Assembly: GCA_951406725.2 (NCBI GenBank)
Contig: OX597832.1
Location: forward strand, 39,184,001 to 39,248,000
Source: Octopus vulgaris
Lineage: Eukaryota
Direction of reading: 5' to 3'
Length of the DNA: 64,000 bases
The stretch's first letter is position 1, and every line of letters begins with the position of its first letter. Shown here one piece after another: positions 40,012 through 62,149 of this stretch. The position numbers and the translations under genes were made by a program. Below the pieces are notes generated by a model. It had not been told where the DNA came from, ran no database searches, and saw only the letters and a list, made by a program, of their open reading frames with translations.

Positions 40012-41286
40012 TGAGGATGGGCTGAAAAGAAAATAGGCTGACTATGAAAGAGCAATGCTAGAGCATGTATTATTTCAACCCTTCTTTTTAGGAGCTGGGG
40101 GGGGGGTTTCCAAGTAGACTGATATTTGGTAGTTCAAAGAAGGCTTCAAAAGTAACTAGTATCGATTTCTCTTGAAAACAGACGAAATTTGTCAACTTGA
40201 TATTATAAAGAACCTTAAGACAAAGGGTTTAGCCCCTAAGGACATCCATGCTGTCATGGTTGCTATATTAGAGGATGATGCTTCAGCTTTATCAATAGTG
40301 CAAAAGTGAGTAGTTGAATTTAAGGTCTTGTTAGAATCTTGAAGATGACCCAAGGTTTGGACATCTTGCAACTGCCACCAACGAGGAAAACATTGATCCT
40401 GTTCACCACATAGTGATGATTGTCAGGCTATTGCCTATGAATCAAATAGCCATTTCTAAGAGCATATCGTGTGAGAGGATTGAGAATATTCTGCCGAATG
40501 GACTTGAAATTACTAAGGCTTCTATTCGGTGGGTGTCACGTCATCTGACACCCAATCAAAAGCGCACTGAGCTGATCATATCACAGGAAAACCTTACATT
40601 ATCTCAGCCAGATTCAGCTGGTTTCATAGAAAGTTTTCTCATCTAGGATCAGCGTTGGCTTCATCACTTTCATTCAAAGACAAAGAGAAGATCCATGCAG
40701 TGGAAATACATTCTCCTTACCTGCTCCAAAAAGGCCAAGGTCATATCATCTGCAGAGAAAGTGATGGCCTCAGATTTTTAGGATGTAAAGGACATTGTAT
40801 TTATTGATTATCTTCAAGAGGGCCAGATCATCATGTGGAGTACAATGCCAAGAGCTGCTGAGGCAATTGCGAAAAGCTATCAAGACCAAACTCCCAGGAA
40901 AACTGACGAAAAAGGTCCTGTTTCTTTTTACCAGGAGAATGCTCCACCACACAAGTCCTTGGTTTCAATACTCGCTGTGCGCGACTGTGGCTTTGAACCC
41001 TCCTATTTGCAGAGTTGGTCTCATCAGAATATCATATGTTTCCAAATATGAAAAGGACACTAGGCTGAGAAACAGAAGCATCGCAGTGATGATGGCGTCA
41101 TATCTGCACTTAAAGACTTTTTTGACCAAGATGTTAAAAGCCTCTTCACCAATGGGAACAACGCAGAGCAACACCGTTAGAAGGAGTCTATTAACCGAAG
41201 GTAGGACTATGCTGAAAAATAACTTCACCTGGTCACATTTGATGAGAGTGTTTTGGTAAGCCTATGAACTTCTCAGCCGACCCTTG
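40012..41286 (+). mobile_element. Full-length decayed mariner DNA transposon (~1.27 kb) with transposase pseudogene
   Basis: TIRs TGAGGATGGGCTGAAAAGAAAATAGGCT and AGCCTATGAACTTCTCAGCCGACCCTTG, with a 5' TA. Broken frames give KGLAPKDIHA, EDDPRFG, IRWVSRHLTPNQK (WVPxxL), F*DVKDIVFIDYLQ, LLRQLRKAIKTKLPGKL and QENAPPHKS (DNAxxH). Confidence 0.92.
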
Positions 41287-44143: not shown

Positions 44144-44739
<596 letters not shown>

Positions 44740-55963: not shown

Positions 55964-56246
55964 TACGATGGGCGTCTTTCAGTTTCCGTCTACCAAATCC
56001 ACTCACATGGCTTGAATCGGCCCAAGGCTATAGAGACTTACCCAAGGGGCCACGCAGTGGGACTGAACCAGGAACGATGTGCTTGGTAAGCAAGCTACTA
56101 ATATATATATATACATAAGAACTTTACAGGAACCATGTGCTTGGTAAGCAAGCTACTAATATATATATATACATAAGAACTTTACAGGAACCATGTGCTT
56201 GGTAAGCAAGCTACTAATATATATATATATACATATGAACTTTACA
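55964..56246 (-). repeat. SINE B 5' half whose end is amplified as a 58-bp tandem repeat (x3)
   Basis: Unit CAGGAACCATGTGCTTGGTAAGCAAGCTACTAATATATATATATACATAAGAACTTTA starts at 56069, 56127 and 56185. Confidence 0.9.
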
Positions 56247-58760: not shown

Positions 58761-59180
58761 AAACCATGGGCAGAGATTTCTATTTACCTATTTCTCTGTC
58801 TACTTTTCTATGTATTTGTCCATTTATTTATGTATTTATCTATCTATATTCTTTTATTCTGTTACTTGTTGCAGTCATTTCACTGCGGCCATGCTGAAGC
58901 ACCGCCTTAAAGGGGTTTTTTGTCGAAGAAATTGACCCCAGAACCTATTCTTCGTAAGCCTAGTACTTATTCTAATTGGTCTCGTTTGCTAGATTCTTCT
59001 ACTATAAAATTTCGATATAACAGTGCATGCGCTTGATATCACAAGTATGACTTTAAAAATCACGTCTAAGCCTTTTAGAAATGAGTCAAAATAAGGCGGT
59101 TCCATCGGTTGTTAATAAATAAATTGTAATAACAGAAGAAAAAATCAGGGATTATTAATATTATTGGTATTGTTGTTCTC

Positions 59181-59749: not shown

Positions 59750-60568
59750 GAATGGAGAGAAAATACTTGAAAAACGACGGAAGCTTAAGTGAATTAGAAT
59801 TCCAAGTCAAAATTAATGTTTTGGACATGAAATTTTATCCTCAGGGTAATTAGGAAATGGATTTCATTTGGCGACATGATTTTTGCGTCGTTTCTGTTTA
59901 ATTTCATAAACGCTTTATTTGTTTGCTTTTAATTATCTGGCCATTGCTTCAAGATAATAAAGTATTTAGGGAATAAATTATATACAGAAGATATTTTGAA
60001 TCATACCAAGGCTCGCATCTACTTGGAATCACGAATCAATTTGCATATGCAATACCATAAATTAAACAGGCATTTGCCGTTCAATCCCCAGGTCAACCAA
60101 CATTAACCATAATTTAATTTCAAAATGCAATATTGCAAAGTGAAATGCAAATATATATTACAACAGTCAGAGAAATGATGTGGAGAATTTGCTAGCAAGT
60201 AATATAGACAAAGGAATAAATTTTATATGGGGAAGAAGGAGAAACGTTTGACGTTTCGGACAGAACATTTCACCAGATTTAAAAGAAATTTCAACTGGTA
60301 ATGCCTGATAATATTTATAATATAATTTTTGTCTCCGATAATACGGTTTCCACCCGAAAGATTACACATTTTTTGAAACTTCTGGCATAAAATATATTTC
60401 ACTGTTTCAACTACAAATAAATTCCTTTAATAGAACACACGCACATAGGCATATTTTATTTTATATTTTATCTAGTTTCAGCTCACGAGCTGTGGCCATG
60501 CTGGGGCACCGCCATATATATATATATATATATATAATCAAAATTAACAACAAGGATATCCAGAGGTA

Positions 60569-60657
60569 ATGCAGTACGATCGTTTCATGCAACTCCATTT
60601 AATTGAACAATGCAATCGTTTCATCAATTTAAAATGCAGAGCAATCCTCAGCTGCAC
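60569..60657 (-). ncRNA. Type I hammerhead ribozyme fold with extended stem II
   Basis: Minus strand reads GTGCAG-CTGAGGA-[58 nt hairpin]-GAAAC-GATC-GTA-CTGCAT. Stem I is 6 bp, stem III has a palindromic GATC loop, and the GUA cut is predicted at 60575. Confidence 0.75.
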
Positions 60658-61167
60658 AAAGACATACAATTTAATTAAATTAAAACAGTTGGACACATTA
60701 CTATAATTATACCGAAAATCTCCAAGAAGTGAAGGAGATAGACAAAGAACATGCCTTCACGCCAGAATAGAAGCTTAAATGAAGGCAGAGGCTTTCATGG
60801 AAATATTCTATATATATGCACACACATACATACGCGCACACACATGTAAACACACACACACACACACACACACACATAATTAATGAGGACAAGTTACCAT
60901 TCCCAGATTAAGATTTTACGATTGAACAAATCTGAGATCAAATTAAACAGCATTGTGACAAAATACACATTTTGTGGCTGAGATGCTTCAGCAGAGTTTC
61001 AAAATTCGATTTATTCTGATAAATCCGTGGTACTACAGTAAGTATGTTCTAGTTGGACCACATATTACACAAGTTGTTTTAGCAAGGCTACAAAGCGAAG
61101 CCGTTCTCATATGACTACTACTGCTCGTATGTGCACGATTTCTGATTCCACACGTGCACAGGGAAGG

Positions 61168-61199
<32 letters not shown>

Positions 61200-61228
61200 C
61201 AAAAGAAAAACAGGATGCAAAGAATTTA

Positions 61229-61316
61229 GCGGTACATATGTTTCTGGCCTTTATTAGACAGTTTATATTAATGCATAATTGATGTAATATGTATGTCAAT
61301 AGACTTCATCAGCCAC
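61229..61316 (-). ncRNA. Type I hammerhead ribozyme fold, second divergent family, extended stem II
   Basis: Minus strand reads GTGG-CTGATGA-[61 nt imperfect hairpin AGTCTATTGACA...TGTCTAATAAAGGCC]-GAAAC-ATAT-GTA-CCGC; cut predicted at 61233. Confidence 0.7.
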
Positions 61317-61419
61317 GCACAATTACCACACCAAGGACATGTATTACATTATAATTTCGGGTAAAAGACGATTTTCGTTGGGGATGCAACGCTTTAATTT
61401 AATTAAATTGTATGTCTTT

Positions 61420-61508
61420 GTGCAGCTGAGGATTGCTCTGCATTTTAAATTGATGAAACGATTGCATTGTTCAATTAAATGAAGTTGCATGAAACGATCG
61501 TACAGCAT
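61420..61508 (+). ncRNA. Type I hammerhead ribozyme fold (mirror copy of 60569-60657)
   Basis: GTGCAG-CTGAGGA(61426-61432)-...-GAAAC(61491)-GATC-GTA-CAGCAT; one mismatch in stem I; cut predicted after 61502. Confidence 0.7.
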
Positions 61509-61536
61509 TACCTCTGGATATCCTTGTTGTTAATTT

Positions 61537-61574
<38 letters not shown>

Positions 61575-61876: not shown

Positions 61877-62149
61877 TATTCTGTTGTGTCTGGGGAGAGT
61901 CATTTTCTTTTTGTGCCTTGTAATATAACACACGCATCGGTAAAATTTTTACTTTTTTCTTATTTTTATTCTCCTAAAATTTTCGTTGCCTCTTGCAAAC
62001 TTTCAAAAGTCAAGACTATTGAAAAGGTTGCAAGACGCAACGAAAATTTTAGGACAATAAAAATAAGAAATAAGTGGAAATTTTACCGGTGAGTGTGTTA
62101 CGTAATAAAGCACAAAAAGAAGATGACTCTCCCCAGACACAACAGAATA
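61877..62149. mobile_element. Foldback MITE-like palindrome (~135-bp imperfect arms, 2-nt loop, TA at both ends)
   Basis: TA|TTCTGTTGTGTCTGGGGAGAGTCAT ... ATGACTCTCCCCAGACACAACAGAA|TA; centre AGTC-AA-GACT at 62008-62017. Confidence 0.85.

Follow-up and report, generated by a model that had tools for sequence, protein, structure and literature searches.

The two arms of the inverted repeat at 60537-61540 are, with a probability of about 0.8, truncated 3' ends from an abundant Penelope-like element (PLE) family, likely of the Hydra clade by its protein motifs. Each arm carries a hammerhead motif for which self-cleavage is predicted. The back-to-back layout is likely a by-product of copying and not a regulatory device. 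The locus itself is ordinary retrotransposon debris, and the ribozyme variant is the useful part.

Layout of the locus and its hammerhead motifs

The window, i.e. the whole 64,000-nucleotide stretch that was analyzed, corresponds to C19:39.18-39.25 Mb of a 2.8-Gb assembly with 227 contigs. Microsatellites are abundant across the window, and no host gene was evident among its open frames on inspection by eye. The inverted repeat pairs 60537-60684 with 61393-61540; its arms of 148 nt are 99% complementary and are separated by 708 nt. The following features were assigned.

60515..60536, no strand: (TA)n flanking the left arm on its outer side, as is usual for F1 3' ends
60537..60773, minus strand: left arm, a 5'-truncated 3' end of family F1 (pLTR, short 3' end)
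60569..60657, minus strand: left type I hammerhead motif, predicted cut between 60575 and 60574
60774..60787, plus strand: short inverted stub adjoining the left arm on its inner side
60809..60878, no strand: (TA)/(CA) microsatellite
60880..61167, no strand: single-copy DNA, 288 bp, one match in the assembly
61168..61199, no strand: (TA)n that follows the F2 copy at its 3' end
61200..61389, minus strand: 5'-truncated copy of family F2 with a hammerhead, core from 61312, predicted cut between 61233 and 61232
61393..61540, plus strand: right arm, a 5'-truncated F1 3' end
61420..61508, plus strand: right hammerhead, predicted cut between 61502 and 61503
61540..61567, no strand: (TA)n flanking the right arm on its outer side

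A preliminary description of this DNA had reported a 148-bp inverted repeat with a hammerhead motif in each arm, and both were found at the positions it gave. Its reading of the arms as GTGCAG-CTGAGGA-58 nt-GAAAC-GATC-GTA was reproduced, as were the predicted cuts, which follow 61502 and 60575 and lie 38 nt from the end of the arm. Both arm hammerheads point outward. The two differences that had been counted between the arms are indeed the only substitutions (61482/60595 and 61504/60573), but a further 1-nt difference had been missed at the (TA)n junction, where the left arm has one base extra compared with the right. The F1 sequence of the left arm exceeds the shared inverted repeat by 89 bp (to ~60773). 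The adjoining stub, recognized by an 8-bp inverted match (60752-60759 / 60780-60787) flanking a 6-bp palindrome, may represent a 5' inversion. The truncated 5' end of the F2 copy adjoins the right arm directly. The spacer had been taken for ordinary DNA plus a cassette; the cassette is the F2 copy, but the spacer as a whole is mostly repeat, and only 60880-61167 is single-copy.

The type I hammerhead architecture with a long domain II was confirmed in all three copies of the window, each of which has a complete core (CUGANGA / GAAA / UH). Stem I contains 6/6 pairs in the left arm, 5/6 in the right arm, and 4 in the F2 copy; the T/A difference between the arms creates an A.A mismatch at the second stem I pair of the right arm (61504). 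The foot of stem II consists of U.U followed by 3 bp in F1 and of A.A followed by 3 bp in F2. A G10.1-C11.1 pair with a short, stable stem II is found in neither family, and their domain II (58-61 nt) folds weakly. The 58-nt hairpin proposed earlier is weak, with domain II z values of -1.0 (left) and -0.3 (right); the fold of the whole motif gave z = -1.5. The proposed peculiarity of stem II applies to its length but not to the U.U, which is common in the Hydra clade (core form ..GAT / TGAA in 14/26 rows of the table in PMC8557442). Stem III is palindromic, with a predicted self-duplex of -10.0 (F1) and -7.0 (F2) kcal/mol and no hairpin. An F1-F2 heterodimer was set aside; no stem III duplex between the families is predicted.

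A strict hammerhead scan yielded 75 matches in 515 kb, comprising the window and fetched loci picked because they hold these repeats, and 0 matches in one reversed and two shuffled controls. No Rfam hammerhead model was among the 13 matches to E=10 over 60530-61545, nor, for the whole window, among the 150 matches listed of 264. All 11 fixed core bases are intact in 50/66 F1 and 25/27 F2 copies. Departures at these bases amount to 16/764 cells in F1 and 4/312 cells in F2. The F1 core departs as much as the 3' flank (2.1% versus 2.3%), as expected of dead copies. The most variable column is N7, the free core position (38 G and 32 A in F1; 9 T, 15 A, and 4 G in F2), which suggests that selection acted in the source elements. 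Within domain II, two arm-specific changes at 61452-61460 / 60617-60625 yield a second GAAACGAT core word, which could permit an alternative fold or reflect local templating.

Several other repeats were noted in the window. A short, very common repeat lies at 60471-60514 and 58883-58909, one copy adjoining the left (TA)n. A MITE-like hairpin element at 61877-62149 has 127-bp arms (89%) with a 19-nt gap and is extremely abundant in sequencing-run contigs. Short tandem duplications are located at 858-1262, 44211-44554, and 56069-56246 with periods of 184, 171, and 58 bp, respectively. Broken frames at 40335-41256 are reminiscent of a mariner-type transposase.

The F1 element and its affiliation

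A search with the F1 arm gave 2,143 first-look candidates in the assembly, and scoring of 40 of them gave 93-95% identity to the arm for the best copies elsewhere. F1 copies lack their 5' part to widely varying extents, and most terminate next to (TA)n or a different simple repeat. For 27 3' ends, the distance past the cut was 38-44 nt in 12 cases, 123-132 nt in 10, and more in 5. Walking upstream through real F1 copies, a 3' UTR of at least 2.7 kb was followed by a C-terminal endonuclease, an N-rich linker, and a reverse transcriptase (RT). The ORF measures ~2.9 kb and the element ~5.5-6 kb. By its motifs, in broken ORF pieces of L123 and other loci, the ORF encodes the RT followed by a C-terminal GIY-YIG-like endonuclease, and this order in long F1 copies substantiates the earlier link of the hammerheads to PLEs. 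A long asparagine-rich insert separates the two domains in L104, L105, and L123; an insert of this kind is also described for rotifer Penelope elements (PMC3846280). Long inverted arms between TA runs would also suit a MITE, a DNA transposon whose terminal inverted repeats would here measure 148 bp. This was ruled out, with next to no probability left to it, by the single-copy interior, by the whole unit not being repeated in the genome, and by arms that occur singly, have variable 5' truncation points, and lead on into an RT ORF.

Hammerheads were found in both the 5' and the 3' pLTR of F1. In near-full copies such as L161, an inverted pLTR precedes a pLTR with hammerhead, and the ORF starts 186 nt after the cut. 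The combination of a pLTR with hammerhead, an optional tail, an inverted 5' copy, and (TA)n was observed in L161, L168, L172, L175, L179, L100, and L123. A pyrimidine run plus CAG lies directly before the F1 start codon in L161 (1316-1348); it may be a splice acceptor, which would put the hammerhead into a 5' UTR intron. Two 3-kb loci on C13, L020 and L021, lie 26 kb apart in opposite orientation and are 99.8% identical, the result of a recent duplication or an assembly effect.

The F1 protein contains DKT, GLYRDD, CxCX5C, CxxC before E, and CxH after N, and CCHH was absent on inspection by eye. The N-terminal RWK reads RWI (L163, L165-L168, L170, L179). By eye, the RT is much like that of Hydra-1_Obim, and the Atlas lead from the F1 ORF to RT-like clusters was 0.97. 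For the F1 ORF pieces, nothing above cut-off was obtained from Pfam, no match from PDB, and no homologue from a protein search, which is weak evidence by the search's own note. The Hydra clade is defined in section 11 of PMC8557442 by DKT, CxCX5C, CxxC/CxH, RWK, no CCHH, and a length generally <3 kb. The Neptune clade, a first guess for F1, was dropped for Hydra on the published definition and tables. Judged by the motifs and the Atlas lead, F1 likely belongs to the Hydra clade.

In the definition and tables of Craig et al. (2021, PMC8557442), Hydra-clade elements resemble F1 in the order of RT and C-terminal endonuclease, in DKT, CxCX5C, and CxxC/CxH, in (TA)n neighbors, in a hammerhead near the 3' end, and in the U.U core form. 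Compared with the same entries, F1 differs in its domain II (58 nt versus loops of 3-10 nt), its even, perfect stem III palindrome, its tail (about 85-90 nt versus 30-40), and its length, which is about twice that usual for the clade at ~5.5-6 kb. The 3' UTR of at least 2.7 kb, the N-rich insert, and RWI for RWK are further differences, and the F1 hammerhead is not that of Hydra-1_Obim as given there. With the minimal PLE hammerheads of Cervera and de la Pena (2014, PMC4209133), F1 has in common the type I architecture, the palindromic helix III, the extra base after A9, and pairs lying close together on opposite strands. In contrast to F1, the rows of its Fig. S3 that were compared have a short helix II and loop and follow the G10.1-C11.1 rule. 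The Poseidon element PAc of Anolis, as described by Frangieh et al. (2024, PMC11167929), resembles F1 in having two 3' ends past the hammerhead and AT-rich targets, but its ORF starts within stem II instead of 186 nt after the cut.

For F2, 1,401 first-look candidates were found in the assembly. The layout corresponds to that of F1, with two 3' ends, inverted pairs, and (TA)n, and fits a PLE. An RT piece near L150 is separated from F2 by microsatellites, and no ORF could be linked to F2 itself.

Inverted pairs and the origin of the locus

The inverted layout, which had been regarded as special, is neither rare in the two families nor new. Head-to-head pairs were present at 16/56 F1 and 6/22 F2 loci besides the window (17/57 and 6/23 with it), fractions that refer to top search matches and are not genome-wide rates. 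From these counts, 27/147 loci were excluded (the window's own and overlapping fetches; at a few places both were dropped). PMC4209133 describes dual hammerhead motifs ~100-700 bp apart on opposite strands, and PMC8557442 lists the Hydra-clade element Penelope-13_HM as having one hammerhead per strand and a 5' copy in inverted orientation. Only one direct pair (L015) was seen among 28 F1 loci. The non-LTR retrozymes of bioRxiv 10.64898/2026.07.22.740005 likewise have a type I hammerhead and are PLE-derived, but they are arranged head-to-tail and F1 is inverted. A non-LTR retrozyme was ruled out, as the hammerhead units are not head-to-tail.

The F1 pairs other than that of the window have a median divergence of 6.3%, with 0.8% in L108; of all 17 pairs, 11 are adjacent (gap <40 nt). 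Private variants in common are more frequent in pairs than in random copies (0.84 versus 0.26 per 100 nt, p=4e-6). The arms of L123 are unevenly alike, with 5/371 mismatches in one part and 11/165 in another (p=0.002). An F1-F2 head-to-head junction was detected in 1/121 sequences, namely the window. Following published PLE work, such pairs could arise when (TA)n is nicked by the endonuclease, reverse transcription begins inside the RNA at one of two sites that lie 38-44 or 123-132 nt past the cut, 3' of the hammerhead, and another priming event yields the inverted copy. On tandem transcripts, the ribozyme would act weakly, either in dimeric form via its palindromic stem III or assisted by protein.

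For a transcript through the whole unit, the duplex between the arms foreseen in the preliminary description was indeed predicted, with 146-147 of 148 nt paired. Because the motifs point outward, the antisense copy is transcribed before the sense copy in either direction. The arm ribozymes are therefore expected to be off in through-transcripts; transcripts initiated in the spacer would escape the duplex effect. None of the sequencing runs listed as containing this DNA is of RNA. A dominant predicted duplex and an antisense copy made first either way are also what a selected switch would have, in which the inverted copy holds the ribozyme off in through-transcripts. We consider such a switch very improbable, given the same layout at about three in ten family loci, the stem I mismatch in the right ribozyme, and an arm likeness that also arises from uneven homogenization, as in L123.

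Both arms lie 5.0% from the F1 majority and the F2 copy 4.2% from its own (family medians, 4.4% and 3.2%). The arms have 5 departures from the F1 majority in common, two of which were found in one other copy only, and their 2 differences both lie in the right arm. Since all three copies are 4-5% from the family majority, the 1.4% difference between the arms dates their last copying or conversion and not the insertion. The event had been called young; this holds for copying or conversion between the arms but not for insertion, and inverted-arm identity alone cannot date an insertion.

The capture of host DNA between the arms, also suggested earlier, is possible and has published precedent, but the unique 288 bp matched the assembly only at the locus itself, and no donor was thus found there. 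In a second sequencing run with the same species label, this spacer was present at a depth of 14.1, compared with 13-19 in the flanks. Contigs of three other organism labels reach parts of both flanks, none joining them, and zero spacer depth in these proves nothing. With no donor found for the spacer, local copying is preferred over capture. At about even odds, a left F1 copy and an F2 copy, both old, lay in host DNA, and the left arm served as the local template from which the right arm was later made or overwritten.

Capture would have proceeded by a single insertion of read-through RNA (F2 piece, host DNA, and F1) into (TA)n, finished by an inverted 5' copy. We regard this as possible, if somewhat unlikely. 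F2 and the left F1 share a strand, F2 is truncated exactly at the right arm, and the arms have private variants in common, as pairs generally do, but unlike 3' junctions; the one-base difference at the (TA)n junction fits separate priming better than DNA copying. Sequence captured between head-to-head pLTRs is documented in PMC3846280. The missing donor and the flank-like depth of the 288 bp in the second run argue against it. A 7-nt match between the right junction and upstream F2 sequence was noticed post hoc and does not decide the origin.

An SINE-like repeat with a 14-bp direct repeat interrupts an F1 inverted pair in L057 (935-1370). An adjacent F1 pair, the prevailing form among F1 pairs, could likewise have been split later in the window by a 610-bp block consisting of F2 and its 3' flank. 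The inner junctions carry a 7-of-8 direct repeat (60773-60780 and 61391-61398), which agrees with such a split but is short, AT-rich, and was noticed post hoc. As the left arm has its own inverted stub and no donor of the block was found in the assembly, we consider this course improbable. Local copying of the left arm remains the preferred account.

Families with a long domain II

Six families with a long arm were distinguished, with domain II lengths of 58 nt in F1, 61 in F2, 55 in F3 (one locus), 65 in F4 (one locus), 50 in F5 (9 loci), and 50-56 in F6 (3 loci). Stem III is palindromic in all six, a property that was demanded by the scans for F2, F3, and F4 and not by those for F1, F5, and F6. 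Between F2 and F4, which are 68% alike, double changes preserve the palindromic stem III and the paired foot of stem II. F5 was obtained in a further motif scan, with 22 matches versus 7 in the control, most of the others looking like chance. Its stem I pair adjoining the core is absent, and the F5 hammerhead may be inactive; the conservation of its core is built into the search pattern.

In the tables of PMC8557442, the two halves of the core are also widely spaced in Selaginella PLE-X hammerheads (loops of 29 and 35 nt) and in the 'HHR_half_core' of cephalopod Naiad elements (35-50 nt apart), as in F1-F4. These motifs belong to other clades and are deviant or incomplete there, whereas F1-F4 combine the entire core with stem I and a palindromic stem III. 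No description of a domain II of 50-65 nt was found in the text and tables of the PLE hammerhead literature that was searched, although one may be on record. A domain II of this length in six families missed by Rfam would be the sole feature not found in print. If it is functional, counts of hammerheads in genomes of this kind fall short by thousands, and the natural variants across the families are a ready test of the role of PLE hammerheads and of their need for protein. Rather doubtful, in our estimate, is a wider proposal that combines thousands of overlooked long-domain-II PLE hammerheads (in six or more families that neither Rfam nor short-stem descriptors detect), an arm serving as a platform on which the element's own protein switches cleavage on, and a locus produced by one reverse-transcription event across two PLE families carrying host DNA.

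Three further observations were made on these loci. The 10-mer ATTGATRTAA is common to domain II of F1, F2, and F4 (L005, L032, L086), on the 5' side in F1 and on the 3' side in F2 and F4. Besides the long-arm families, ordinary minimal hammerheads whose domain II measures 12 nt are also present (L028 1413, L051 2318). In L128, a zinc-finger and GIY-YIG-like piece lies downstream of an F5 hammerhead.
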